A stretch of DNA of 64,000 nt from an uncultured Candidatus Saccharibacteria bacterium (GCA_964550955.1 CAZKAF010000002.1:9335-73334); one strand, 5' to 3'; positions 7,562-29,510 are shown, counted from the stretch's first letter. Numbers and translations: made by a program. Notes: a model not told the origin generated them from the letters alone.

Positions 7562-8827
7562 CTACGGCGTCCAGACCCCTCCCGGCTGGCCGGTTGAATC
7601 CCATGTGCACTGGTAGTCGCCTCCGTCCTCCGGATACCAATTATTGCAGGAATATTCCCCTCCTCCGCCCGACGTCCAATAATAGCCGCAGTTGCCGTAG
7701 TCATCGCTCCATTCGGTACCGCACATGGCATTTTCGCATTCATAGGGATCAAGGAACCCAACCTGGCTGCCGCTCGAAGAATCCACGCAATATTCGTACA
7801 TGTCCTCCATGCACATCTCAGACAGGCAGGAAGGCTCGTCGCCGTGCCACGTCACGTTGAAGCCTTGATCTTGGCAATACCCGCCGCCGCCTCCGCCGCC
7901 GCACATGTTGGATTCGCAGGATCCCTGATCAGTCGAGTATCCGTCGCTGCACACGTACACTTCGGACTCGCACTCTTCCTGCGTTCCGTATTGCGCATCA
8001 GAGCATCCGCTCTCGCCGCCGACGATGCCCCCGTCGGAATCTTCCTCGATGCCGCTCGTTATGCCGAGCACCTTGTCAGCCACATACGGGCCGCTGCAAA
8101 AGCTGCCTCCGGAACCTGACGGATTGAAAACTGGATAGTAATCGAGGTTCGCGCTGCCGGTCACCTCGCAGATTGACCGCAAGAAATCGAGCGAAGCAGG
8201 ATCGGAATTTTTAGAAAGCACGAAGCCGATTTTCTTGTTTGCATGCGTAAAGACGTAGCGCTCTTCAAGATACGTGTAAACCGTCAGATTGTTCCCGTCA
8301 GACCAGGCTTTGTAGCAGATGCCTGACTCGGGGCTGTTCCTCGGATCTCGCGGCACGGAACCAAGATTGCCGGCAGCCACCAGCGTGTCGGCCATCGAGT
8401 TGAACCTGGTGCAGCCGGCTGACAGGGACTGCGCGTACGCGACAGGCGTGATCTTGGACAGGAAGCTTTGGACCGCGCCAAACGGCTTGGCCCGAGCGCC
8501 TTCGCCTTTCTCCGGCAGATCCGCCGCGAGCGAGCCGACCTGAAGAGCGTCGCCTTGAGAGAGGGCGGGATAGTTGCCCCTGGCCGTGTAATACACTTCC
8601 AAGGCAATTTTCAGCTGGGCCAATTCCTGAGACCTCTTCGAGTCATTTGCCCTCTTGCGGCCCTCCGAAAGGCTGCCTATTACCGCGGACGAGAGGAGTC
8701 CTATTATGGAAATGACGACCAGGAGCTCGATGAGCGTGAAGCCGAACATGCGCGACTTGGATGCGGCTTTCTTGAGGCATGAATCTTTCCCCGCCTTTCG
8801 TTTTCCAAATATAGGTATTAGTTTCAT
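7562..8827 (-). CDS. Type IV pilin-like protein with a long Cys-, Gly- and Asp-rich C-terminal region
   Basis: Prepilin signal ...SRMFG|FTLIELLVVISIIGLLSS. The 300-aa C-terminus contains many Cys (CSDGYSTDQGSCESNMCGGGGGGGYC...) and ends in W/Y/G-rich repeats. Confidence 0.65.
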   Translation of the reverse strand: MKLIPIFGKRKAGKDSCLKKAASKSRMFGFTLIELLVVISIIGLLSSAVIGSLSEGRKRANDSKRSQELAQLKIALEVYYTARGNYPALSQGDALQVGSLAADLPEKGEGARAKPFGAVQSFLSKITPVAYAQSLSAGCTRFNSMADTLVAAGNLGSVPRDPRNSPESGICYKAWSDGNNLTVYTYLEERYVFTHANKKIGFVLSKNSDPASLDFLRSICEVTGSANLDYYPVFNPSGSGGSFCSGPYVADKVLGITSGIEEDSDGGIVGGESGCSDAQYGTQEECESEVYVCSDGYSTDQGSCESNMCGGGGGGGYCQDQGFNVTWHGDEPSCLSEMCMEDMYEYCVDSSSGSQVGFLDPYECENAMCGTEWSDDYGNCGYYWTSGGGGEYSCNNWYPEDGGDYQCTWDSTGQPGGVWTP

Positions 8828-17533: not shown

Positions 17534-20500
17534 TTATGCAGACGGATTATCCGGTCCGGACGCCGGAGCAGGAGTCGGCTCCGGAGCAGTAGCTGGAGTT
17601 TCAGGACCAGGAGCCGGTTCCTCAGGAGGCGTGGTAAGCCCGGAAGCCGGAGGCGTCACGGAATCCCCGCCCCCTTGCTGGTCCTCGTCGGCAAGCTCGT
17701 CAGCTTCTTCTTCAGCCGGAATTTCCTCAGGCTCGTCAGGAATGGTCACCGGGTCAGGCGCGACCGTCGGCGCAGGAGCAGGGACAGTTCCGCACTTGCC
17801 CGGAACGCTGACCATCGAGCCGCCCTTCATCTTCAAGCAGTACGGCTCGTTCGTCGTCTCGTCGTAGATGGTGATGCCGGCAGGCTTCTCCCGGCTTCCG
17901 ACCGTCAAGCCTTCGACGGATATCTTCGCGAAGTAAACGATGCCGTTCTTGACCTCCTTGGCAATTCCGTCCACTTTCACCTTGAGCTCCTTCACCGCCT
18001 CTATAAGAAGACCGACAAGGTTCGCGATCTTGACCGACTTGTATTCGCCGCCTGATGACACCACTTCCGGAACCACCTGCTCCACTTCCTGGGCGATGAC
18101 GCCTATCTCGGTGGAAGTGCCGAATCGCGCCTTGTCGAGCCATTCGTATGAGACTCCCCTGAGCTGCATCACCTTGTCGAGCGCCCCTTCTATGGTATTG
18201 ATATTTTCCTTGAGCGACTCGTCCGAAGGAGACCGGATGATGTTTCCGTTCGCGTCCGTCGAGAGCGTCGTCGCGCCTCCGAGAAGGTTGGACGCGAAGA
18301 TGGTTCCGGCCACGGACAGCTTCTGCGCCGGAGTGGACGTGCCTATTCCGACATTGCCTCCCGACGTGATCCTGAGCCATTCGGTGTTGCCGCCGGCAGC
18401 GAACGTGAGGTTCCCGGCGGATCTCATTCCGAATTCGGATGCCGTATTGGCCGCAATGAAGTAAGCGGCAGATCCGACGTATCCGACATCGGAAGAGCCG
18501 TTGTTCCATGTCGTATATCCGCCATACTGGCCCTCGAACCTTCCGACGAGGCCTCCCGGATCAAGAGTCTTGACGTGGAGCGGAGCGACAGGGGTCGAGA
18601 TGCCTATTCCGACATAGCCGCTTTCGTGAATGGTGAGGTATTCATTGTCACCGCCGAGGTTGGAGAACTTCGCCGTGCCGGTAAACACCGAGCTGCCTGC
18701 CACCGCAAACGCAGTGGTAGGATCGGCGCTGCCGGTCAAGCTGTATGTCTGCATCTCGCAGCCTATCTTCGTGCCTCCGTCGTTACAGTTGGTGGCGCTC
18801 GCGGCCTTCGTGATGAATACATGGCCGTTTGCCACGAAGACGTCGTTGAAGGCGGCGGAATCAAATCCGGCATTGACGCTGCCCGATGCATCCGCGCCCG
18901 CAACATAGCGCGGAACGGCAGGATTGGAGATATCGAATACCATCAGCTCGCAGCCAGTGCCGTCCGCAAGCGAACATTCAGCAGCGCTCGCGCCTTTTGT
19001 AACATACAGATATTTGCCCGAGATGAACAAGTCATCGAATGCGAGGGTCGACGTGCCTCCATTTGCAGTACCCGAAGAGTCCGCGCCTCCCACAAGCACG
19101 GGATTGGCCGGATTAGAAACATTGAAAATCTTAAGCTCGCAGCCGAGCCTTACGAGACCGCAATCGCTGTTGTTTCCGGCCTGTCCCACATACGCGTATC
19201 CGTTTCGCACGACCACGGCATTGAATGCGATGCTTCCCGCTCCGGAATTTGTCGCGCCGGAGGAATCAGCACCGCTGACAAAGACAGGGCTGGCAGGGTT
19301 GCTGACATCCCAAATCTGAAGCTCGCAGCCGTTCCTGTTAGCGCCGGCATCGCAGGTAGTAGCGTTCGCCTTCGCGATATACATGTAGTTGCCCGAAACG
19401 AACACGTCATTGAAGGCGCTGTTCGTCGTTCCGGTTGCCACCTGACCGGACGCGTCGATGCCGGTAACGTAAGACGGCGCGGTAGAAGAAGAGACATTGT
19501 AGATGTGCAGCTCGCAGCCTATCTTCGTGCTTCCGTCGTTACAGTTGGTAGCGTTTCCGAGCTTTGCGACGAACGCATAGTTGCCGGAGACGAAGACGGT
19601 GCGGAAAGCGAGGCTTCCCGCGCCTGAATTAACCGAGCCGGACGCGTCGATGCCGCTCTGATATACCGGGTTGGAGGGATCGCTGACGTCCCAAATCTGG
19701 AATTCGCAGCCGGCCCGGTTGGCGCCGTTATCGCACGTGGTAGCAGCAGCCTTTCCTATATATGCATAGTTGCCGGAGACGAAGACGCTGTTGAAGGCAA
19801 CGTTGCCCACGCCGGCGTTCGCGGCACCGGCCGCGTCGGCTCCGCCGACATAGACGGGAGTCGCAGGATTGGAGACGTCATATATCTGAAGCTCGCAGCC
19901 CGCCTTGTTGTTCGCAGTGTTACAGTTGGTGGCAAGGGCAGCTTTCGCCACGAACGCATAGTTGCCGGAGACGAAGACGTCGGACAAGATGCCGCTGACG
20001 GTTCCGGTCGCTGTCAGGCTCGAAGCGTCCACGCCGCTGGCATACGCAAGCACCGGCGGTTCGGACAAGGAGCCCTGCACGGAAAGCTTTGCCGCAGGCG
20101 AGTCCGTTCCGATTCCCACGTTGCCTGCATTATAAGAAGCGATGTCTACTCCATGAGTAATCCACTGCGCCGCGCCTCCGTCCGCCGTGAAGAGCACCCC
20201 ATTCTGGTAGATATTGCCCGTGAAGTTGATGTCGCCGGCGACCGTCAGCGTATGGCTCGGGCTGCTGGTTCCGATTCCCACGTTGCCGGTCGACCTTAAT
20301 GTCATGACCTCGGTCAGCGAATTGCCGAGCTTGAAGGCAAGGTTCCAAACTCCGCCAGTTCTCGAAAGGGCTTCTATGGAAGCGCCGTTATACGCTCCCG
20401 CGCCGTTTGATGAGCCCGTGAACAATATGCCAGGACTGCCCCAGCTTCCCGATGAATCTATCCTGATGGCATGCGTCGAGGAAGCCGGCTCAAATCCGTA

Positions 20501-23500
20501 ATTCGTAGGATCGACAATGGTCAGTCCGTGCGTAGGAGTAGTTGTCCCGATTCCGACATTTCCGTTCTGAGTTATGGCAAACAGGCTTGTTCCGGTAGAA
20601 GACGCGACATTGAACGGATTGATTCCGGCGAGGCCTTTCTGGTCGAATGCGTACTGAGGGCTGTTATTGTTGACGCCGACTCTTCCGAACCTGTTGACCG
20701 TAAACGCCTCGGAGCCATGATCGTACGGCCTGACGTTGAACACGCTGGCTGATCCGAGATCGATGTTGACGGCGCCGCTGTTGCCTACCCCAACTGTAGT
20801 ATTCGCTCCTCCCTGAAGCCTCATGACATTGCTTGAGGCTCCGACATATCCTATGTCAGTTCCGGCTGTCGTAAATAGGACCTGATTGAAGCCGAGAGGA
20901 TTGCTGTTGACCATCATGAATCGGGTATTTGCACTTCCTCCAAAGCTCATCTGGGCATCGTTCTCAATTGGATTGACCGTAAAATACGTGTTCGTGTTGC
21001 CCGCATTGATGCTGAGACGCGCGCCCGGAGTAGATGTTCCGATTCCCACGTTTCCAGTGCTCTTGATGGTAAAGAGCCTCGCGTTCGTAGAGGACGCGAC
21101 GGTAAAGATGTCGGCCGTTCCAGCCGTTCCCGTGATCGCGAGCTTCGCGGACGGGGTGGTGGTGCCGATTCCGATATTTCCGGTGCTCTTGACGGTAAGG
21201 AGCTGCGCGTTCGTCGAGGAGGCGACGATAAAAACATCGCTTGTGCCCGCAGTGCCGGTAACGGCGAGCCGTGCCATCGGCGTGGTCGTGCCGATTCCGG
21301 TGAATCCGGTCGAAAGTATCGTGAGCTTCGCGCTGTTGTTCGGGCCTATCATGAGGCTGCCCCCGGTGGAGTTCGAGATATTGCCTCCGAACGCGAACGT
21401 GGCCGAACCGCCGTTCACGCTATTTCCGTATCCGAACGCGTAAGATGTCTGACTGTAAACATTATTTCCGTATCCGAACGATCCCGAATAAGCACTGTAG
21501 ACGCCGTTCGCGTATCCGACTATCGTGGAGTAATCGACCCACCCTGACATGGCATTGCTCGTGCCGATGACCGTAGGCGAATACGTGCCGGATACCGAGA
21601 CGCTGTTTCTGTAACCGATCGCGATTCCTTCATATGAATGCAGTACGTTCTGATAGCCGATCGCGATGGTATAGTCATCGGATGTCTCATTGAGATCTCC
21701 TAATATGTATGAATAGGAAGCATAGGCAGCGTTACTGAATCCCAAGGCAATTGAATAGACGGAATCGGCTGAAATCGTGTTGCTCTTTCCAAATGCATAG
21801 GACACGTATCCGTGCACCGTATTGGTTGATCCGATAGCGCTCGATTCGGTCCCGCCGGCATAATTTCCATATCCGGCGGCAAGTCCGTACGTCGACGCAA
21901 TATTCTGAACGCCAAGAGCGGTCGCGTACTGTCCGGCAGCTTGGTTCAAGTGGCCAAGAGCCGTAGCCCCGAGGCCCGCAGTGGTGTTCGCCGCGCCGAA
22001 TGCCGAAGAATCGGTACCGGTGACCGTATTCCTATTTCCGACAGCCGTGGATCTGACGCCCGAAGCAACCTGGCCGGCAGATACTCGGAAAGCCTGCATG
22101 TCAAGCGAGTTCGTATTGCGCGTATTGCCAGTCACGTCTCCGATGATTACAGGACTCGTGCCTGTTCCCATTCTGAGCGGACCCGTTATGTGGGCATTGC
22201 CTGCCACAACCAGCGTTGAGCCGGGCGTCGTAGTTCCGATGCCAACCGCTCCGGCAAACGTGCTCGTCGCCGTCGTGGAAGTGGCGACGAAGAAGGCGGC
22301 GCGGATAGCGTCAGTCGAAGTCGCCGTGGCGAGGAAGCCGCTGCCGAGCGTCAGGTAGTTTGAAGATGATCCGCCGGAAATGCCAAGCGTCGATGTTGCG
22401 ACCCACTTGGTGCCGGTGCCGGTAGTCTGAAGCACCATGCCGGCGGTGCCGGCCGATGAAAGCCCGTCGTAAAATATCCCCTGAAGTTCCATGTTTCCGT
22501 ACACCTCAAGGCCCACGGTGTCTACGCCCTGTACGGATACGCTGTTTCCCAGGAATCCGAGAGCGTTTACGTAACCAGTAACCGTGGCGCTTCCCGCTAC
22601 GGTCAGTTTATCCGTAGGAGTAGACGTCCCAATCCCGACGTTTCCAGTGCTCTTGACGGTAAAGAGCCTCGCGTTCGTAGAGGACGCGACGGTAAAGATG
22701 TCGGCCGTTCCAGCCGTTCCCGTGATCGCGAGCTTCGCGGACGGGGTGGTGGTGCCGATTCCTACGCTGCCTTGAAAGTAATTTCTTCCGCCTTCCGCAT
22801 AAACTGAGTAGCCGCTTGAATTATCCTGAAGGGCATAAAGCGCCTGGCCTCCCGATGCGTTGCTGTAGCCGGAAACGCCGATATGGCCTTCTCCTCGCAC
22901 GCCCTGGTACCCGCCGGTACCCAGCACTCCGGCAGATCCGAAATAGATGGACGGAGCGTAGCCGTAGATGGCATATGTGCCTGGCCCGTCGCTGTCAGCA
23001 TCCGGCACTTCAGCATACACGCCATATGTACTGCCAAAATCCCCGACATTGCCCGATATGATGGAGCGTATGCCGGACACGGACTGGTCAGGAATTGCCG
23101 AAGTCACGACAACCAGCTTCGAGCCGGGCGTCGTTGTTCCGATTCCGAAAGACCCGTTTGCCGTAACAACGCTTAGCGAACTCGAAGCCGCATCCTGCCA
23201 TTCCTGGAGGTTCGCAGTTTGAGAAGTGAAGCCTCGAACGATGAGGGCTCTTTGTCCGGCTGAAGTGGTATGAATCTCAGCTCTTGCGATATTCGCCACG
23301 CTCTCGCTTGAAAGAGAACTTACGAGCTTCAACGTAGCGCTTACCTCAAACGCGACCCTGCCCATCGAGTTGGCGATGAGGGTCGTGCCGGCAACTCCAG
23401 CATTGCCGTCCAATCGAGTCGGAAGATAGAGACCGTTGCTGAACCGGACAGATTCCGCTTGAAACCAGATGGCGCTTTGACCGCCTGCGCCCAATGTGTA

Positions 23501-25210
23501 TGTCTGAATTGACGCCTCACGACCAGTACTGTCCGTAAAACGTATTAATTTTGTAGCGTTAGCGAGATTGGATCGGAACAAAGTTCCATTTCCCTCCACA
23601 GCAAGAGTTGTGCTGCCGTTGGACCCTTGCCATTCCTGAATATTTGAAGTCTGAGTCGAATTAGCTCTTACTATTAACTGAGGTATGTCTGTTGAACCCT
23701 GGATGTGAAGCCGTGCGGCCGGAGTAGTAGTGCCTATGCCTACGCTGCCGTTGAATATTCCGCCGTGCGCACTAATGGTCGCAAACCCAGAATCATCCGC
23801 GAGTCGGAAATCGATTCCTGCTCCATTTCGCTTGATTGCAGGGAAAGACGAAGTCGTTCCTCCAAACGAAAGTCGTCCGAATGAAGTGCCTGCATTATCG
23901 TACAGCACTATATTGCCCACTCCATTAGGCCAAATGGAGGCATTGTTCTTGAGCAAAAGACCTCTGGTTTCTCCGACGGTTATATCCCAATTTGAAACAA
24001 TGGCCCCAGATGAAATGGACAATGAGCTAAGTGCACCTGTAAAAGATCCAGTACCCTGAACGGTGAGATTGCTGCCCGGCGTCGTTGTTCCGATTCCCAC
24101 GTTTCCAGTGCTCTTGATGGTAAAGAGCCTCGCGTTCGTAGAGGACGCGACGGCGAAGATGTCGGCCGTTCCGGCCGTTCCCGTGATCGCGAGCTTGGCT
24201 GATGGTGTAGTACTGCCGATACCGACGTCGCCCGTATTGTAATAAATATTTGCGCCGGAGGTTATCCACTGGCTGCTCACCTTGCTCGCCCACTCGGTCG
24301 TAGACGCGGTGAGAGGGATGGTATAGCCGACAGCAAGAGCCAGATCTCCCGTACCTGCAGTGTATGTCAGCCCTGTCGCAGAGCTCGAAAACATATTCCG
24401 GATAGTCGTGCTTGCAAGGCCTATTCGAGCGTCAGCTCGTTCGTTCGTGAAGTACAAGTTCGTGCCTTCTGCGATGTCAGTCGTGATGAGCCCGAGCGTC
24501 GAAGTCGAGATGGCGGAAACGGAACCGTTCGTGCCAACGAGCAGTCCTGTCAGCGAGCTGATTCGAAGCGTGCCAGTAACATTCGTAGTGCTTGCCGTGA
24601 GATTCGCCGCGTAAAAATTAGTACTCGTCGCATTCGTCGTCCTCAAGTTAGTCGACGTCGCATTCGTCGCATCAAGAGCTTTTGCAGTGTCAGCGACAAA
24701 GGCAGTCGGCACGGACGCGAACTTCTTTCGCGGAGACATCTCGCCGTCCCATGAAGGCGAAGCCGTTCCTCCGATATTCACGCCGAGGTAGATTGCCTGA
24801 TCGAAGTTGATGCCGGCAAGCGAGCTCACTGAGCCGAGAAGGACGCTGAAGAGTCCGTTCGTGACCTGGACCCTGTTGCCGCCCGTTCGAGTCTCAGTCC
24901 AGATGGCAGTTCCGCCGGAAGAAACCGTATAGAGCTTGAACTCCATGTTGTAGATGCCGTCAGGCACCGCGACGTTCGAAGACGTCATGAGCTTGCCCTG
25001 ATAGTTGATCTCGGTCGCCGCCTCCGCGCTTCCCGCAAGCGAAGGATGAACGAGGCTCGCCAGGATGATGACATTTGAAAAAATTAATAACACCGCACAT
25101 AAAAAATGGGCAGTGAGAGTCTTTTTGCTTTTTGGTGAAAAAATACCGTATTTCATGAAAAGGTTTCCGGCCGTTTTTTCGCAAGACTTTGATACCTGCT
25201 CGGTTATCAT
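17534..25210 (-). CDS. Giant (about 2558 aa) cell-surface protein. It combines tail-fibre-like GNVGIGTTTP repeats, LVIVD-type beta-propeller repeats, a C-terminal intramolecular-chaperone (endosialidase-chaperone / peptidase S74-like) domain, and a Pro/Glu-rich tail.
   Basis: The signal peptide/TM segment is near MKYGIFSPKSKKTLTAHFLCAVLLIF (start likely about 25156). There are more than 8 copies of G(N/T)VGIGT(T/S)TP(S/G)AKL(A/S)I.GTAGT(A/S)D(I/V)F.VASSTNA.L(F/L)T(I/V)KSTGN(V/I)GIGT. Six or seven tandem copies, about 75 aa each, carry VFVSGNYAY(I/V)...GCE(L/F)QI(W/Y)DVSNP..PV, which is LVIVD-like. The C-terminus has SDESLKENINTIEGALDKVMQLRGVSYEW, matching the tail-fibre intramolecular-chaperone motif, and then a PAPAPTVAPDP...PEEPAPGPETP tail. 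Confidence 0.85.
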   Translation of the reverse strand: MITEQVSKSCEKTAGNLFMKYGIFSPKSKKTLTAHFLCAVLLIFSNVIILASLVHPSLAGSAEAATEINYQGKLMTSSNVAVPDGIYNMEFKLYTVSSGGTAIWTETRTGGNRVQVTNGLFSVLLGSVSSLAGINFDQAIYLGVNIGGTASPSWDGEMSPRKKFASVPTAFVADTAKALDATNATSTNLRTTNATSTNFYAANLTASTTNVTGTLRISSLTGLLVGTNGSVSAISTSTLGLITTDIAEGTNLYFTNERADARIGLASTTIRNMFSSSATGLTYTAGTGDLALAVGYTIPLTASTTEWASKVSSQWITSGANIYYNTGDVGIGSTTPSAKLAITGTAGTADIFAVASSTNARLFTIKSTGNVGIGTTTPGSNLTVQGTGSFTGALSSLSISSGAIVSNWDITVGETRGLLLKNNASIWPNGVGNIVLYDNAGTSFGRLSFGGTTSSFPAIKRNGAGIDFRLADDSGFATISAHGGIFNGSVGIGTTTPAARLHIQGSTDIPQLIVRANSTQTSNIQEWQGSNGSTTLAVEGNGTLFRSNLANATKLIRFTDSTGREASIQTYTLGAGGQSAIWFQAESVRFSNGLYLPTRLDGNAGVAGTTLIANSMGRVAFEVSATLKLVSSLSSESVANIARAEIHTTSAGQRALIVRGFTSQTANLQEWQDAASSSLSVVTANGSFGIGTTTPGSKLVVVTSAIPDQSVSGIRSIISGNVGDFGSTYGVYAEVPDADSDGPGTYAIYGYAPSIYFGSAGVLGTGGYQGVRGEGHIGVSGYSNASGGQALYALQDNSSGYSVYAEGGRNYFQGSVGIGTTTPSAKLAITGTAGTADIFTVASSTNARLFTVKSTGNVGIGTSTPTDKLTVAGSATVTGYVNALGFLGNSVSVQGVDTVGLEVYGNMELQGIFYDGLSSAGTAGMVLQTTGTGTKWVATSTLGISGGSSSNYLTLGSGFLATATSTDAIRAAFFVATSTTATSTFAGAVGIGTTTPGSTLVVAGNAHITGPLRMGTGTSPVIIGDVTGNTRNTNSLDMQAFRVSAGQVASGVRSTAVGNRNTVTGTDSSAFGAANTTAGLGATALGHLNQAAGQYATALGVQNIASTYGLAAGYGNYAGGTESSAIGSTNTVHGYVSYAFGKSNTISADSVYSIALGFSNAAYASYSYILGDLNETSDDYTIAIGYQNVLHSYEGIAIGYRNSVSVSGTYSPTVIGTSNAMSGWVDYSTIVGYANGVYSAYSGSFGYGNNVYSQTSYAFGYGNSVNGGSATFAFGGNISNSTGGSLMIGPNNSAKLTILSTGFTGIGTTTPMARLAVTGTAGTSDVFIVASSTNAQLLTVKSTGNIGIGTTTPSAKLAITGTAGTADIFTVASSTNARLFTIKSTGNVGIGTSTPGARLSINAGNTNTYFTVNPIENDAQMSFGGSANTRFMMVNSNPLGFNQVLFTTAGTDIGYVGASSNVMRLQGGANTTVGVGNSGAVNIDLGSASVFNVRPYDHGSEAFTVNRFGRVGVNNNSPQYAFDQKGLAGINPFNVASSTGTSLFAITQNGNVGIGTTTPTHGLTIVDPTNYGFEPASSTHAIRIDSSGSWGSPGILFTGSSNGAGAYNGASIEALSRTGGVWNLAFKLGNSLTEVMTLRSTGNVGIGTSSPSHTLTVAGDINFTGNIYQNGVLFTADGGAAQWITHGVDIASYNAGNVGIGTDSPAAKLSVQGSLSEPPVLAYASGVDASSLTATGTVSGILSDVFVSGNYAFVAKAALATNCNTANNKAGCELQIYDVSNPATPVYVGGADAAGAANAGVGNVAFNSVFVSGNYAYIGKAAATTCDNGANRAGCEFQIWDVSDPSNPVYQSGIDASGSVNSGAGSLAFRTVFVSGNYAFVAKLGNATNCNDGSTKIGCELHIYNVSSSTAPSYVTGIDASGQVATGTTNSAFNDVFVSGNYMYIAKANATTCDAGANRNGCELQIWDVSNPASPVFVSGADSSGATNSGAGSIAFNAVVVRNGYAYVGQAGNNSDCGLVRLGCELKIFNVSNPANPVLVGGADSSGTANGGTSTLAFDDLFISGKYLYVTKGASAAECSLADGTGCELMVFDISNPAVPRYVAGADASGSVNAGFDSAAFNDVFVANGHVFITKAASATNCNDGGTKIGCEMQTYSLTGSADPTTAFAVAGSSVFTGTAKFSNLGGDNEYLTIHESGYVGIGISTPVAPLHVKTLDPGGLVGRFEGQYGGYTTWNNGSSDVGYVGSAAYFIAANTASEFGMRSAGNLTFAAGGNTEWLRITSGGNVGIGTSTPAQKLSVAGTIFASNLLGGATTLSTDANGNIIRSPSDESLKENINTIEGALDKVMQLRGVSYEWLDKARFGTSTEIGVIAQEVEQVVPEVVSSGGEYKSVKIANLVGLLIEAVKELKVKVDGIAKEVKNGIVYFAKISVEGLTVGSREKPAGITIYDETTNEPYCLKMKGGSMVSVPGKCGTVPAPAPTVAPDPVTIPDEPEEIPAEEEADELADEDQQGGGDSVTPPASGLTTPPEEPAPGPETPATAPEPTPAPASGPDNPSA

Positions 25211-25235: not shown

Positions 25236-26786
25236 CTACTCGCGAGACGCTCTCTTTTGCAAGAACCGTATAGCTAAAACGACTATGAGAAGAAGGAACG
25301 AAAATGAAAGAATCTTTCGAAAATCGATTCCAAACAGGGCACTTTGTCGATCAGCGCTTGAGTGCTGCTTGATTGTAAATTCTCCGCTGGCCAAAACGGT
25401 CTCTTTACTCTTATATTTTAGCATTCCGACGTAAAATTCATAGCTGTGCGTGCTGAAAAATGTGGGTATCTCCACTTCAAATTTTCGCGTTGCCGTGTTG
25501 TAAGAAAACATGTACCCCCTGCGCACTTCCGGAATGCGATTATTGATGCAAAATGCCAGCGCGCGAGCGTCATCGAGCGCCGCGTCGGTCGCATTCAGCT
25601 CGATTCGAACGGGCAGATTCGGTTCCAGGACAATCCTTGAATTCGTGAACGATATTTTCTTTCCGGCCTGAGTGATGGACAGGTCTTCGATCCTGATTTC
25701 CCTCAATCCCTTGTTCGAAAATCCGCCTTTGGAATTGCAGAACGTGTATTCGTAAAACGGATTGCTGTAATCGGGCACGACGTACGGGAAATTGTCATCG
25801 AGAAGAGGATCGTATGGCACGCCGGTTCCGTCAGGACCCATGCCCGGACCCGTGACAGGATCGGACGAATCGTCAGGATTGATCGGGTCAGTATCCAGAT
25901 TCGTTTTCGGACCCTTGTCATCGGGACTGAGCGGATAATACACCGCGGCTATGGCGGGCGCGGAGACGTTGCCGCTGCGGTCATACGCGAAGAGCGAATA
26001 AAAATACAGCGTGCCCGGCACCAGGCTGCTGTCAGTCACCTGAGTGCCTCTTCCTTCGTACACAACCTTTCCTTCAAGCGGAGTGCGCGGATAGAAGATA
26101 TCAGACCTCACGAGCCTCACGTACGAGAAGTCAGAGTCCGTAGGAACTTTCCAGTTCAGGACTATCTGGTTCGCATTCAGATACGCCGCGAGATCGGCCG
26201 GGGCGCTCGGAGGCGAGACGTCAGGCAAGCTCAGCGTGGTGAACTGGCCTAAATAATTTATCGTATCGCCGAGAGAATCCTTCAGGGTCAGGTTGAAATA
26301 ATAGCGAGTGCCTGGCTTCAGGTTCTCTATCTTGACGTTGAAGTCGTTGTGATACCAGGCCTCGGAAAGGCTTCCTATCTCGTAGTCGGGAGTCTCTCCC
26401 CACGAGATGGACGCGATCGAGGCGAAAAGAGTCTTCAGACTCAGGGTGGCGCTGTAAAAATCAGGCGAAATCTGTATGTTCCTGATTTCGTTCGGAGTGG
26501 TGCTTGTCGAAGACGTGACCGTTGAGCCTGACCCGCCTCCTACGGGCGGCGTCGAAGTCGGAGCGGGCGGCGCGGGACAGTCGCTCGGACATGACAGGTA
26601 ATCTTCGCCGATAACGTCTTCGCATATCGCATTGTTGTTGCAGATGAGGACCTGAAGCTGCACCGTGGTCGAATTGGCGGCAGCCTGTTTCGGGCTGACG
26701 CCGCCGAAGGAAGCCAGGCCGATGAGAACGAGAAAAAAGCAAGCGAGCAGGAAACCTTCGAATTTTTTAGCAAGCTTGTCAGGCAC
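25236..26786 (-). CDS. Surface protein with fibronectin type III-like domains and a C-terminal TM anchor
   Basis: N-terminal signal/TM segment, a Cys-containing stalk, then two FN3-like modules (one with WKVP...YVRLVRSD...GTLYFYSLFAYDRSGNVSAP), then a C-terminal hydrophobic helix plus KRASRE. Confidence 0.6.
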   Translation of the reverse strand: MPDKLAKKFEGFLLACFFLVLIGLASFGGVSPKQAAANSTTVQLQVLICNNNAICEDVIGEDYLSCPSDCPAPPAPTSTPPVGGGSGSTVTSSTSTTPNEIRNIQISPDFYSATLSLKTLFASIASISWGETPDYEIGSLSEAWYHNDFNVKIENLKPGTRYYFNLTLKDSLGDTINYLGQFTTLSLPDVSPPSAPADLAAYLNANQIVLNWKVPTDSDFSYVRLVRSDIFYPRTPLEGKVVYEGRGTQVTDSSLVPGTLYFYSLFAYDRSGNVSAPAIAAVYYPLSPDDKGPKTNLDTDPINPDDSSDPVTGPGMGPDGTGVPYDPLLDDNFPYVVPDYSNPFYEYTFCNSKGGFSNKGLREIRIEDLSITQAGKKISFTNSRIVLEPNLPVRIELNATDAALDDARALAFCINNRIPEVRRGYMFSYNTATRKFEVEIPTFFSTHSYEFYVGMLKYKSKETVLASGEFTIKQHSSADRQSALFGIDFRKILSFSFLLLIVVLAIRFLQKRASRE

Positions 26787-26904
26787 GAAAACAGTATACC
26801 ATTCGAATAATAAAAATATCCAATTGCTTTTGCGGAGCGAGCTATCGATGTCCGGAACCGAAGTCGGAGTCGGCGGTCCTTGCTCGCCGGCAGGGCGCCG
26901 AAGA

Positions 26905-27669
26905 TTAAAGCGCGGTCGCAGTCACGGTAATCGACGCCGAATATCCGGAAGACGAATCCTGAATCACGTCAGCGCCGATATGCACCCTGTACTTGATTGT
27001 TGTCGTCGCGCCGGAGGGCTCGTTTGCCGTGGCGCCTTGAGAAATAATTTTCGGAGTCGTCGAGAATCCGTCCCAGCATGCATTCGCGGTATCGCCTGAG
27101 CCGAAATTGCAGACCGATCCGTTGTCCTTATACTTGCCGAGGATGTCGACGCCTTCCGGACTGAAGCCGAAAGAGCTCGATGCGGTCGAGGCGCTGTATG
27201 CAAAATCAGGATCGGCCCCTGACGGAGAATAATCGGCAATGCTCGATTGGCTCGCCCGCAATGCCGGGTTAGTCGAGGCTGAAACCGTCAGCTGATACCC
27301 GAGCGCATTGTTCGTGGTGACGTTCCATGAAGAAGAGCTCGTGCTTTGACCTCCGATCAATCCGCTGATAGATCCAAGATCGACGTCATCGACCGCGTTT
27401 ATGGAAACGTACGTGTCCTCCGGTATCCAGTATCCGGCCGACATGCGGTAATTGGTCGAGGATGAAAACCCGGTGCCCGCTTCGCCGACGGTCGAGCCGA
27501 GAGAGTAGCTGCTGCTTGTCGAGAACGATGTCCCTCCGGAATTTATGCTGTCCGTGTCGATGCGATAATTGGAGCTGCCCATGGTGTACGCGTCGATGCA
27601 GAAAGGAAGCAGCCCGATAAGCGAGAGCACGAAGAGGACGTATATTTTTCTAAGCAGCGGAATGTTCAT
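26905..27669 (-). CDS. Secreted Ser/Thr-rich surface protein, paralogue of the 28794..29450 gene
   Basis: Signal peptide. Shares blocks with the paralogue: SSWNVTTNNALGYQLTVSASTNPALRAS..SIADY and a C-terminal SGYSASITVTATAL. Shows a WxL-domain-like alternating pattern but lacks the tryptophans. Confidence 0.5.
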   Translation of the reverse strand: MNIPLLRKIYVLFVLSLIGLLPFCIDAYTMGSSNYRIDTDSINSGGTSFSTSSSYSLGSTVGEAGTGFSSSTNYRMSAGYWIPEDTYVSINAVDDVDLGSISGLIGGQSTSSSSWNVTTNNALGYQLTVSASTNPALRASQSSIADYSPSGADPDFAYSASTASSSFGFSPEGVDILGKYKDNGSVCNFGSGDTANACWDGFSTTPKIISQGATANEPSGATTTIKYRVHIGADVIQDSSSGYSASITVTATAL

Positions 27670-27762
27670 ATTTTAAAGCCGGCCCTTTTCGCCCGTCAAT
27701 TCGCCCGGCAAGTTCTGACAAAAATCACGTCTTCGCAGGCCGGAGCGAGTTGGCGGCAGGGC

Positions 27763-28719
27763 CTATTTTCTCTTGAGCTCAAACTTCTTGCCGAACAGGT
27801 ACATGCCAGTCACGACCAGGAAGACGACGAGAACCAGGCCTGCGACGTATTTCCATGGAATTGCCCAGAAGGATATTTTCTGCTCGTCAACGACGTCGCC
27901 GTAACCTCGATTCAGGGAAAGGGTCGCGGTATATCGCCCGAAGAGAGTTTCCTTGTCCCAATTGACCTGACGATACCTGAGCGAATCAGGAAGCGAGAAA
28001 TACGCATCTACGGGAACCGCGGCAACTTCCCTGCCGAAGATGTTTCTCACCTTGACCATGCCGTATGGCACCAAGTGCACGCTTCCCTCGTTCTTGTAAA
28101 GTATTTCGAAAGTAATCGGACCATTTTGAATGATTCCGGGCTTCGGACCCTTGGCCCTGAAGTCTTCGAGCCTTCCTGATTCGTTGACCGGGCCGTTTAC
28201 CCTGATGAAGAAGAGGACTCCGAGTCGGGAGACGATTCTGGTTCTGCCCGCCGAAACGTCGGATGCGTTATCGGGAGGGATGCTGGCAACGATGACCGAA
28301 GAGTAGTAACCGCCCGGCGCAGTTTCCGCAGGAACCGTTATGGTCACGGGAATCTGAATTCTCTGGCCCAAGTCAAGGGAGAAATTGTCAACGCTGGGAT
28401 TGATGTTGTTTCGGAAAGAGTGAGGGCTCGAGTCGTCGTCAAGAAGAAGCACCGGAGTCTCGGGATCCTGCGTGCCGACGAAGTCTTCAGTCACCACTTG
28501 GAATCGCGTGTTCGGCGCGAGGCGGCTGATTACGGAAATGTTCTTAGTGACCGTCTCCCCCGGATTAAGGAAAACCTCTATCTTTCCGGGCTCCAGAACG
28601 AAGTCTCCTCGCGCGTCGACGCCTGTCGGAGTTATGGCCTGGGCGAAAGATTCGCTAGCCGCCGAAAACAGCAATGCGACCAAGAGTGCGGATGTTGCTA
28701 TTTTTCGGAAGGGGTTCAT
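27763..28719 (-). CDS. CscA/DUF916-like cell-surface protein (signal peptide plus C-terminal TM anchor with a KRK tail)
   Basis: Signal peptide. A central NFSLDLGQRIQIPVTITVPAETAPGGYY block resembles the DUF916 core. The C-terminus has a hydrophobic helix followed by KKFELKRK. It is flanked by two paralogous secreted proteins, as in Gram-positive csc (WxL) clusters. Confidence 0.5.
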   Translation of the reverse strand: MNPFRKIATSALLVALLFSAASESFAQAITPTGVDARGDFVLEPGKIEVFLNPGETVTKNISVISRLAPNTRFQVVTEDFVGTQDPETPVLLLDDDSSPHSFRNNINPSVDNFSLDLGQRIQIPVTITVPAETAPGGYYSSVIVASIPPDNASDVSAGRTRIVSRLGVLFFIRVNGPVNESGRLEDFRAKGPKPGIIQNGPITFEILYKNEGSVHLVPYGMVKVRNIFGREVAAVPVDAYFSLPDSLRYRQVNWDKETLFGRYTATLSLNRGYGDVVDEQKISFWAIPWKYVAGLVLVVFLVVTGMYLFGKKFELKRK

Positions 28720-28793
28720 ATGTGGAAGATTATACCAGAAACTTAGCTAAGTAAAGATTGCCCGAAGAGCAGTCAAATACTCCGGATTGGCTT

Positions 28794-29450
28794 TTAAGAA
28801 GCGGTTGCCGTCGCGGTGATTATCGCCTGATACGTTCCTGACGGGATATAGAATGTGTTCTGTCCGACGGCATAGCATACGGTCGTGTCGATGCCGGTAG
28901 TAGTTGTCGTCGAAGTTCTCGTGAGCACGGTAAAGTTGGACGTAGTGAATCCCTTATAGTTCAAGGTCGTTGACGGGATATGGGCACCGCCTGATGCGCA
29001 AGTCGAGCCAGTTCCCCATGTGCCGGTAACAACGCCCGTTCCGAATACTGAGTATCCGAACGCCGCCGCGCCGGGAGAAACGGACCATGTGTTAGGCGAT
29101 CCTGTCTGGTAGTCCGCAATCGAAGCGGAAGTCGTGGCTTCCCTCATTGCCGGAGAAGTGGAAGCTCGGAGGGCCAGGGTATAGCCTGCCGAGTTGTTCG
29201 TCTTCACGTTCCATGTCGTCGTGCCTACGGCAGTGTCGGAAGAGACGCCGAGCGACGTGCTCATCGTTGAGTCAGCAGGAGAAGTGATTGAAATACCAGT
29301 CGTAACATTCAAAGTAATAACGACGGTGTCAGTAGCTTGAGCCTCTGACAGCGAAGGTTCAATTAAGGTAAAGCCCAGCATCAGGCAGAGCGTCGTGATG
29401 AGGGTTGAACTAATTATTTTTTTCATGTTTTTTTTCATTTGTAAATGCAA
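28794..29450 (-). CDS. Secreted Thr/Ser-rich surface protein, paralogue of the 26905..27669 gene
   Basis: Signal peptide. Shares blocks TTWNVKTNNSAGYTLALRASTSPAMRE..SIADY and a C-terminal GTYQAIITATATAS. Confidence 0.5.
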   Translation of the reverse strand: MHLQMKKNMKKIISSTLITTLCLMLGFTLIEPSLSEAQATDTVVITLNVTTGISITSPADSTMSTSLGVSSDTAVGTTTWNVKTNNSAGYTLALRASTSPAMREATTSASIADYQTGSPNTWSVSPGAAAFGYSVFGTGVVTGTWGTGSTCASGGAHIPSTTLNYKGFTTSNFTVLTRTSTTTTTGIDTTVCYAVGQNTFYIPSGTYQAIITATATAS

Positions 29451-29463
29451 CTTGGTAATTTAT

Positions 29464-29510
29464 AGTAAATATTATACCCGATATTTACTATGATAGCACC
29501 CCCCCCCCCC
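29464..29510. promoter_or_regulatory. Promoter-region elements upstream of the surface-protein locus: a 10-bp inverted repeat (TAGTAAATAT-N8-ATATTTACTA) followed by a C12 homopolymer (29499..29510). This is a candidate slipped-strand phase-variation site.
   Basis: Read directly from the sequence. The tract lies 49-60 bp upstream of the ATG at 29450 (minus strand) and downstream of the gatB stop. Confidence 0.4.

Follow-up and report, generated by a model that had tools for sequence, protein, structure and literature searches.

Two described surface systems bear most closely on the locus that we report here. The first is the Pam operon of Candidatus Mycosynbacter amalyticus (Saccharimonadia), which encodes the pilins PamA, PamB and PamE together with PamT, the chaperones PamC (WP_260763277.1) and PamD (WP_260763284.1) and the anchor PamR (Troman et al., bioRxiv 10.64898/2026.03.03.709456). 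Both PamC and PamD have a signal peptide, a FimC/PapD-like fold and a C-terminal transmembrane (TM) helix, while PamR combines tandem fibronectin type III (FnIII or FN3) domains with a TM helix at the C-terminus and an additional strand at the N-terminus, which is predicted to plug into the last pilin; a tail-fibre-like protein is consistently found beside pam operons, and Pam pilins occur mainly in Saccharimonadia and Microgenomatia (bioRxiv 10.64898/2026.03.03.709456). In M. amalyticus they rank 2nd and 9th among the proteins by abundance. The second comprises the WxL/Csc clusters of Lactobacillales and Listeria, in which a small WxL protein, a WxLIP (DUF916-DUF3324-TM, or CscA) and a large WxL protein are encoded together (PMC10599100; PMC1534035). 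Such a cluster has been defined as one WxLIP and at least two WxL proteins within four genes, and the WxLIP is described as a peptidoglycan- and host-binding linker with a DUF916 hairpin strand that, as predicted by AlphaFold, inserts into the WxL protein (PMC10599100). We describe a five-gene module on the minus strand of a 64,000-nucleotide stretch of DNA (hereafter the window) from a genome labelled uncultured Candidatus Saccharibacteria bacterium (GCA_964550955.1, CAZKAF010000002.1:9335-73334), an ultrasmall member of the Candidate Phyla Radiation (CPR), and we suggest, with a probability of roughly 0.55, that it encodes a Paceibacteria variant of the Pam-type, usher-less and chaperone-assisted surface fibre.

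Specifically, the module comprises, in the order of transcription, gene B, a gene for a 318-residue membrane-anchored protein, gene A, a gene for an FN3 protein and the gene for a giant protein. A preliminary description of the window had reported this same-strand set, and all five open reading frames (ORFs) were found at the positions given there; the intergenic gaps are 74, 93, 118 and 25 nt, in agreement with the range of 25-118 bp that it had quoted. An N-terminal hydrophobic signal segment was detected by hydropathy in all five products. The same description had likened the layout to that of csc clusters, and the order small protein, WxLIP-like protein, small protein indeed matches the cluster on E. 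faecium pEfm12493, where a WxL protein of 232 residues, a WxLIP of 340 residues and a WxL protein of 237 residues follow each other.

The 318-residue protein (27763..28719, minus strand) is chaperone-like and has the architecture described for PamC and PamD. Its AlphaFold2 (AF2) model (predicted local distance difference test score, pLDDT, 88.8) contains a signal helix, two beta-sandwich domains of the immunoglobulin (Ig)-like type (domain 1, residues ~27-176, nt 28192-28641; domain 2, residues ~177-288, nt 27856-28191) and a TM helix (residues 289-313, nt 27781-27855) that is followed by a KRK tail. In domain 1 a loop of low confidence (residues 153-157) precedes the last strand (residues ~164-174), which is conserved and is a candidate for a chaperone strand that would enter the groove of a subunit core. 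Hydropathy similarly places a hydrophobic 19-mer at residues 292-310, followed by KKFELKRK, and the signal peptide and C-terminal anchor proposed earlier for this protein were thus both recovered. It had also been called CscA/DUF916-like, and this was right, the link being visible only with family-level and profile methods. The window copy alone gave no match in the Pfam or NCBIfam scans (E≤1), whereas PF06030 (WxLIP_PGBD, formerly DUF916) was matched by 11 of the 40 family members (best E=1.4e-8), and the family profile searched against the PDB returned EfmWxLIP1 of E. faecium (9i25_C, 9i1y_A) with E=3.4e-5. Moreover, hhalign of the family against eight Firmicutes WxLIPs taken from plasmids gave a probability of 92.6% (E=4.7e-7), and domain 1 alone aligned with DUF916 at 89.6% (E=1.9e-6, with clean cross-controls). 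For domain 2 no relation to DUF3324 was detected in sequence: PF11797 matched 0/40 family members and hhalign against DUF3324 gave a non-significant 3.3%.

At the level of structure, the best PDB match of the 318-residue model found with Foldseek was 9i25_C, the WxLIP of E. faecium locus A bound to a long WxL protein (E=1.3e-11), and the alignment covers 269 columns and both domains. The apo WxLIP 9i1y came next, ahead of the Vpr fibril (8jmw) and of RbmA from V. cholerae, while the remainder of the top 50 consisted mostly of periplasmic chaperones from chaperone-usher systems, namely CfaA, Caf1M, CsuC, FimC, DraB and CupB2 (E values of 5e-9 to 1e-6). A phmmer search of PDB sequences with this protein, or with the product of gene A, returned nothing meaningful. 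Taken together, the profiles and the model point to the 318-residue protein as a genuine, if remote, homologue of WxLIP (DUF916/CscA).

Gene A (26905..27669, minus strand) encodes a secreted, PamT-like protein of 254 residues, for which the NCBIfam, AF2 and Foldseek data suggest a role as tip or adaptor subunit. It matched the NCBIfam model NF058579 "CPR-type pilus protein PamT" with E=7.9e-13 for the window copy, and the same model was matched by 42 of 42 family members (best E=2.6e-17); as judged from these alignments A is related to PamT but is not an equivalog. AF2 models its pilin-like core (residues 88-254, nt 26908-27408) with pLDDT values >90, while the conserved N-terminal module with its three SxxY-type repeats (residues 30-85, nt 27415-27582) is below 50 and unordered in the monomer. 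Foldseek gave weak matches of the core, most of them to donor-strand subunits: PapE (1n12), the TasA fibre 8aur (second best), CS20, FimA/G/I and the pilin domain of PapG. All 42 family members end flush at the C-terminus and share one invariant Cys pair. Pilins of the chaperone-usher type need their own C-terminal residues for chaperone binding.

In longer relatives that bear the core (387-970 residues) it was located at the extreme C-terminus in every match. Enlarged genes in the A position (509-609 residues; L005:11027-12856, L092:9155-10684 and L088:8566-10161) consist of an extra N-terminal region and a complete A unit, and in one relative a 355-residue N-terminal region is joined to such a unit; the extra region of L092 is a Laminin_G_3/ConA-like lectin domain (E=3e-25). 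A core placed at the C-terminus is also the layout of tip adhesins, of PamA and PamB and of the "large WxL" proteins.

That A and B are paralogues with common blocks had been proposed from the window alone and was borne out by BLASTP (31% identity over 170 residues, E=1e-13) as well as by hhalign of the two family profiles (99.9%, E=8e-31); the blocks TWNV.TNN..GY.L and SIADY and the C-terminal GxY.A.IT.TATA are among the columns that are invariant in both families. Gene B encodes a secreted, single-domain, pilin-like protein, our candidate for the major fibre subunit on the basis of its ORF, its family and its paralogue A. It can be read as 218 residues from a TTG at 29450 (28794-29450) or as 214 residues from an ATG at 29438 (28794..29438, minus strand); the latter start is more probable, and an identical database protein (P0121) begins there. 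Residues 38-52, QATDTVVITLNVTTG (218-residue numbering; 29295..29339, minus strand), form a putative donor strand that directly follows the predicted signal cleavage site, with A37 invariant. Within this strand V43, I45, L47 and V49 are hydrophobic in 96-100% of the members and alternate with the conserved T46 and N48; the core common to A and B in BLASTP starts at residue 53, which leaves the strand outside. The B family ends flush, at the same alignment column, in 45/45 members and has an invariant Cys pair (C151/C192). One of the 45 members matched NF058581 "CPR_Pam_pilin_C" (E=1e-3), and an exhaustive profile search for the A/B core returned 624 cluster representatives among 1.84 billion.

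The signal peptides of the B family have a conserved Glu-Pro pair 5-6 residues before the cleavage Ala (residues 31-36, 29343-29360). E31 is present in 91% and P32 in 78% of the members, and A37 in all of them, which makes for a c-region that is unusual for a Sec signal.

The module is native to the Paceibacteria-type CPR lineage and is widespread there. Overall the families of the three small proteins gave 520, 317 and 281 matches, with 45-80% identity, and the B family includes 317 or more CPR proteins. All are annotated as hypothetical proteins only, in metagenome-assembled genomes of Paceibacterota, Parcubacteria, Nomurabacteria, Kaiserbacteria and the "Patescibacteria group", and apart from a few oddly labelled bins the three families are confined to CPR-labelled genomes. 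Species-representative genomes were scanned with the A profile, with one peptide pattern out of A's C-terminal half as seed, which gave 85 confirmed loci, 80 of which were retained; because of this seed the scan is confined to the A family and does not reach the pam operon of M. amalyticus. The retained loci were searched with hidden Markov models (HMMs) of four families (pilin-like, chaperone-like, A and FN3). A contiguous, same-strand succession of chaperone-like gene, A and FN3 gene was present in 72/80 loci, where the median gap is 7 nt before A and 2 nt between A and the FN3 gene, and a pilin-like gene lies immediately upstream of this block in 66 of the 72; four of the six loci that lack it are truncated at a contig end. 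Furthermore, of the 33 loci that have at least 3 kb of downstream sequence, 25 carry an ORF of at least 900 residues after the FN3 gene, and the tie to the giant gene noted earlier is thus conserved in relatives.

The genes that flank the module vary from relative to relative. In the window the module is bordered by housekeeping genes, with gatB on its upstream side and a GAPDH-type gene on its downstream side, and the base composition and GC content of the module are the same as in the remainder of the window. The conserved gene order, the CPR families and the differing flanks together indicate that the module is native and has been vertically maintained in the CPR lineage. Horizontal import from Firmicutes was rejected on the basis of the GC content, the housekeeping flanks and the large families restricted to CPR-labelled genomes. 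The preliminary description had held that, if the lineage assignment was right, such a cluster would not be expected there; this was mistaken, as the module is widespread and native in the lineage and is a relative of the CPR's own Pam pilus operon.

Bins named "uncultured archaeon", "Clostridia bacterium" and "Nanoarchaeia archaeon" are the source of three loci (L044, L054 and L058), which show 44-46% identity to A, and many module loci are labelled "uncultured Candidatus Saccharibacteria", with 38-57% identity to A. Judged from the sequences, the labels seem to reflect errors of binning or naming and not spread beyond the lineage. In two relatives a DsbA/thioredoxin-like gene is located at most 3.3 kb upstream of the module (L004:6472-7242 and L005:6053-6832), which is in keeping with the Cys pairs that are invariant in A and B.

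The fourth gene of the module (25236..26786, minus strand) encodes a 516-residue FN3 protein with a PamR-like architecture, which Pfam, hydropathy and orthologues suggest as the membrane anchor and terminator. A signal segment comes first, then a strand, a Cys-rich knot and a Pro-rich linker; these are succeeded by two FN3-type domains (residues ~100-285), one more domain and, near the C-terminus, a TM segment (residues 492-510, nt 25257-25313) followed by KRASRE. The Pfam match to fn3 (29 bits, cutoff 25), an additional match to the FN3-like Pur_ac_phosph_N and the TM segment uphold its earlier identification as an FN3-domain anchored protein. The strand (residues 40-48, nt 26643-26669) follows the signal peptide and reads VQLxVLxCN in an alignment of five orthologues, with V42 invariant.

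The last gene (17534..25210, minus strand) encodes a giant secreted protein of 2558 residues, which its Pfam matches characterise as tail-fibre-like. A conserved N-terminal region (residues 60-330, nt 24221-25033) that is shared across relatives is followed by a variable, repeat-rich middle, LVIVD repeats (Pfam E=1.1e-16), a Peptidase_S74 domain (residues 2329-2384, nt 18059-18226; Pfam E=2.8e-17) and a Pro-rich tail. Peptidase_S74 is the intramolecular chaperone of endosialidases and tail fibres. Among the giants of related loci the N-terminal region is common to 35/48 and S74 is present in 7/48, while the distal parts vary; a conserved N-terminus combined with variable distal parts is what would be expected for an attachment end and a binding end.

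Eight loci lack a giant ORF within 1.5 kb of the FN3 gene, and six of these (L060, L066, L073, L084, L091 and L093) have a same-strand trio of ORFs of ~340, 160 and 216-250 residues downstream of it, which may be an alternative cargo or an accessory set. At a few loci (L080:6153-11915, L083:10772-16768 and L090:10784-20725) the HMM of the FN3 protein matches the start of an ORF of 1900-3300 residues right after A, and no chaperone-like gene was detected at these loci; this arrangement may represent a fused anchor-adhesin variant of the module.

Among the alternatives to a Pam-type fibre, the one that survives best, and which we nevertheless consider unlikely, is a non-filamentous complex of the WxL/Csc type. 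Here A and B would be divergent WxL-like wall modules, held non-covalently on peptidoglycan by the WxLIP-like 318-residue protein and forming with it a platform on which the FN3 protein and the giant adhesin would dock. This is the model of the preliminary description. Several points speak for it: apart from the WxLIP homology of the 318-residue protein, the gene order and the sizes are those of real WxL clusters, including the single WxLIP and the pair of WxL proteins in the published definition (PMC10599100), PDB entry 9i25 is a WxLIP bound to a WxL protein, and the larger relatives have the core at the C-terminus as in "large WxL" proteins. The WxL identity of A and B was probed in four ways: we compared 87 family members with Pfam, aligned three query profiles in three alignment modes with hhalign, set reversed-profile nulls beside them, and searched the PDB with Foldseek. 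No member of either family (0/42 for A, 0/45 for B, 0/87 together) matched PF13731 (WxL) at E≤10, compared with 9/9 Firmicutes WxL proteins used as positive control (best E=5e-51), and none of the five window proteins gave a WxL, DUF916 or DUF3324 match in Pfam or NCBIfam (E≤1). Alignment of B, of A or of the merged A+B core with the WxL profile resulted in probabilities <3%. In a relaxed hhalign alignment GYxL does face GWxL, and the C-terminal Y.A.I.ATA faces Y..TI.W.L, but the score of 17.7 hardly exceeds the 9.6-16.4 of the reversed-profile nulls, and at the positions of the two WxL motifs A and B read YxL and AxA. The WxL chain of 9i25 was absent from the top 50 Foldseek matches of A.

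In addition, the tails of WxL proteins vary, whereas the A and B families end flush, and A matches a pilus protein, PamT. In the sequences themselves, the flush C-termini, the Cys pairs and the N-terminal strand of B agree better with a subunit that exchanges strands than with a WxL domain. The preliminary description had seen in A and B divergent WxL proteins that have lost their Trp residues. We reject the WxL identity as unsupported; as for the Trp residues, both WxL motifs are indeed absent, but not all Trp are gone, since W80 and W122 are invariant in the B family and W145 is retained in at least 90% of its members. The complex of the WxL type may, however, merge with the Pam-type reading if WxL clusters themselves use strand complementation.

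Much less probable is a chaperone-free donor-strand fibre of the kind formed by TasA or by archaeal bundling pili, with B polymerising by itself and the 318-residue and FN3 proteins as anchoring or accessory components. The N-terminal strand on B and the TasA fibre 8aur as second-best fold match of A are in keeping with it, and TasA homologues have been reported in Patescibacteria (PMC9245690). That fold match is weak (E=5.8e-3), however, and none of the 87 A and B members matched Peptidase_M73 (PF12389) at E≤10 in Pfam, which led us to reject TasA family identity. The tight linkage (72/80 loci) to a protein with a chaperone-type fold and a conserved module without a SipW-type peptidase likewise argue against it.

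Finally, the GFTLIE at residues 22-27 of B (214-residue numbering) might suggest a type IV pilin, which we practically discount and reject, as a prepilin motif is present in only 2/45 family members, which makes the window copy's GFTLIE a coincidence, and the hydrophobic segment precedes it in B whereas in type IV pilins it follows. Elsewhere in the window, a 421-residue ORF (7562-8827, minus strand) has a canonical type IV prepilin N-terminus (...SRMFG followed by FTLIELLVVISIIGLLSS...), and the genome hence encodes type IV pilin-like proteins too, apart from the module.

For the Pam-type fibre we propose the following scheme. All five products would be exported through Sec, and the 318-residue protein, tethered to the membrane by its C-terminal helix, would act in the manner of PapD and FimC, its two Ig-like domains capping the cores of A and B, which are taken to be Ig-like and incomplete. 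B would then polymerise by inserting its N-terminal strand (38-52) into the preceding subunit, with the PamT-like A at a distal or adaptor position and, in some relatives, with an extra lectin-type N-terminal domain. The FN3 protein would terminate the fibre through its own N-terminal strand and link it to the membrane through its C-terminal helix, and the giant tail-fibre-like protein may be a variable adhesin that acts with the fibre or on it, and may be physically linked to it. Polymerisation, donor-strand exchange and the roles and order of the subunits are what we infer from the gene order, the homologies and the domain architectures described above.

A number of points weigh against this proposal. 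In this lineage the fibre is a prediction from gene and protein sequences. With respect to A, the PamT alignment covers only residues 9-134, its 48 bits falling far short of the 240 set as equivalog cutoff, and its matches to pilin folds are individually weak (best E=4.7e-3, none ≤1e-3). The tie of B to Pam pilins is marginal (the single NF058581 match), and the AF2 monomer models cover the 318-residue protein and A, with B resting on sequence. A and B are moreover single-domain proteins, unlike the two-domain PamA and PamB; no Pam-named model in NCBIfam, a library that may hold no PamC/D model, was matched by the 318-residue family at E≤1; and an ATP synthase, a reported neighbour of Pam, was not found by a simple signature scan of the window.

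A further and more tentative idea concerns the origin of these systems. Among the modules examined, only this locus pairs a chaperone recognisable as DUF916/WxLIP with a subunit recognisable as PamT, and this coexistence in one locus suggests, without proving it, that the WxL and Pam systems are related. The Paceibacteria module could then be a bridge form, with the Firmicutes WxL/WxLIP (Csc) clusters and the CPR Pam pili descending from a single ancient system of monoderms, whose PapD-like chaperone was tethered to the membrane and assembled incomplete-Ig subunits without an usher; we regard this as possible but doubtful. If it were true, strand complementation would also be at work in the WxL clusters of enterococci, Listeria and lactobacilli, and these clusters might build short fibres and not merely sit on peptidoglycan. 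The Pam preprint (bioRxiv 10.64898/2026.03.03.709456) makes no mention of WxL, DUF916, Paceibacteria or Parcubacteria, and a full-text search of the literature returned no paper that links DUF916 to chaperone-usher or donor-strand assembly.

With respect to expression, the module had been regarded as an operon. Scans of the sequence for sigma-70 promoters (9 found, 7.1 +/- 2.9 expected) and for terminators (12 found, 14.4 +/- 4.2 expected) were both at chance level and are therefore uninformative on co-transcription, neither for nor against. Upstream of gene B (29471..29510, minus strand) a TATAAT (29476-29471) constitutes a putative promoter element, and 22 nt upstream of it there is a G12 tract (C12 on the plus strand, 29499-29510), the longest homopolymer of the window. 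A G/C run of at least 8 upstream of the first pilin gene was present in 0/63 relatives, and we therefore reject the idea that the tract is a conserved switch for phase variation; it may instead control expression by slipped-strand changes in this strain alone, in the way of some fimbrial promoters, or be an artefact of assembly. An extended -10-like sequence, TGGTATAAT (28729-28737), ends 9 nt before the ATG of the gene for the 318-residue protein, where it may act as an internal promoter or give rise to a transcript that is nearly leaderless; because it has no -35 it was unreported by the consensus promoter scan.

The CPR (Patescibacteria) represent a large share of bacterial diversity and are host-attached, and their attachment machinery is mostly unannotated. 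The module is present in at least 85 species-level genomes and appears in the databases wholly as "hypothetical". Reading it as Pam-type gives five gene families a testable function and would add Paceibacteria-type lineages to a pilus class that has been known only since 2026. With one chaperone, two small subunits and one anchor it would constitute a minimal system for usher-less donor-strand assembly.

How the module relates to the known systems can be summarised as follows. The likeness to chaperone-usher pili (Pap, Fim, CFA/I, Caf1 and Csu) is one of fold: the 318-residue model matches CfaA, Caf1M, CsuC, FimC and DraB, the A core matches PapE, FimA/G/I, CS20 and the pilin domain of PapG, if weakly, and lectin and pilin-domain fusions occur in relatives; donor-strand exchange would be a further likeness. 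Unlike these pili, the module has no outer membrane and no usher to work with, its chaperone is TM-tethered, and no sequence similarity was detected. To our knowledge, CPR bacteria have no outer membrane, and no usher-like beta-barrel was found among the five genes of the conserved module.

With the Pam system the module shares a CPR host, Sec-exported components, a membrane-anchored chaperone of the PapD/FimC fold with a C-terminal TM helix, the lack of an usher or ATPase, a PamT-related protein (A, by the HMM match in 42/42 members) and an adjacent tail-fibre-like giant. The 318-residue protein resembles PamC and PamD, as these have been described, in fold and in its signal peptide and TM architecture, and the FN3 protein resembles the published description of PamR in architecture, namely in its FN3 domains, C-terminal TM helix and N-terminal strand. 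It differs from Pam in belonging to a Paceibacteria/Parcubacteria-type lineage, in having one chaperone gene instead of two, in a PamT similarity that is limited to the N-terminal half of A and far below the equivalog cutoff, and in that no ATP synthase neighbourhood was found. Its subunits are single-domain proteins of ~180-225 residues when mature, compared with Pam pilins of 38-55 kDa and two domains (in PamA and PamB an N-terminal domain, a linker donor strand and a truncated Ig C-terminal domain); two-domain relatives with the core at the C-terminus exist elsewhere in the A/B family.

As to the WxL/Csc clusters, the differences are that A and B are not detectable as WxL domains and lack both motifs, that DUF3324 is not detectable in sequence, that the module has an FN3-TM protein and a giant S74 fibre in place of an LPXTG (CscD-like) protein, and that the host belongs to the CPR and is not a Firmicute. 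A small LPXTG protein (CscD) is commonly present in WxL/Csc clusters. In none of the five proteins did we find an LPXTG-like (CscD) motif near the C-terminus, and the window gave no sortase signature. What the two have in common is a homologous protein with a signal peptide, two Ig-like domains, a TM helix and a basic tail, the order of small secreted protein, WxLIP and second secreted paralogue, relatives that carry the core at the C-terminus of large variants, and an adjoining large adhesin. The sequence link between chaperone and WxLIP ties the module to the virulence-associated WxL loci of Enterococcus and Listeria, where the mechanism is debated, and this kinship of the chaperones connects two systems that have so far been treated as unrelated.

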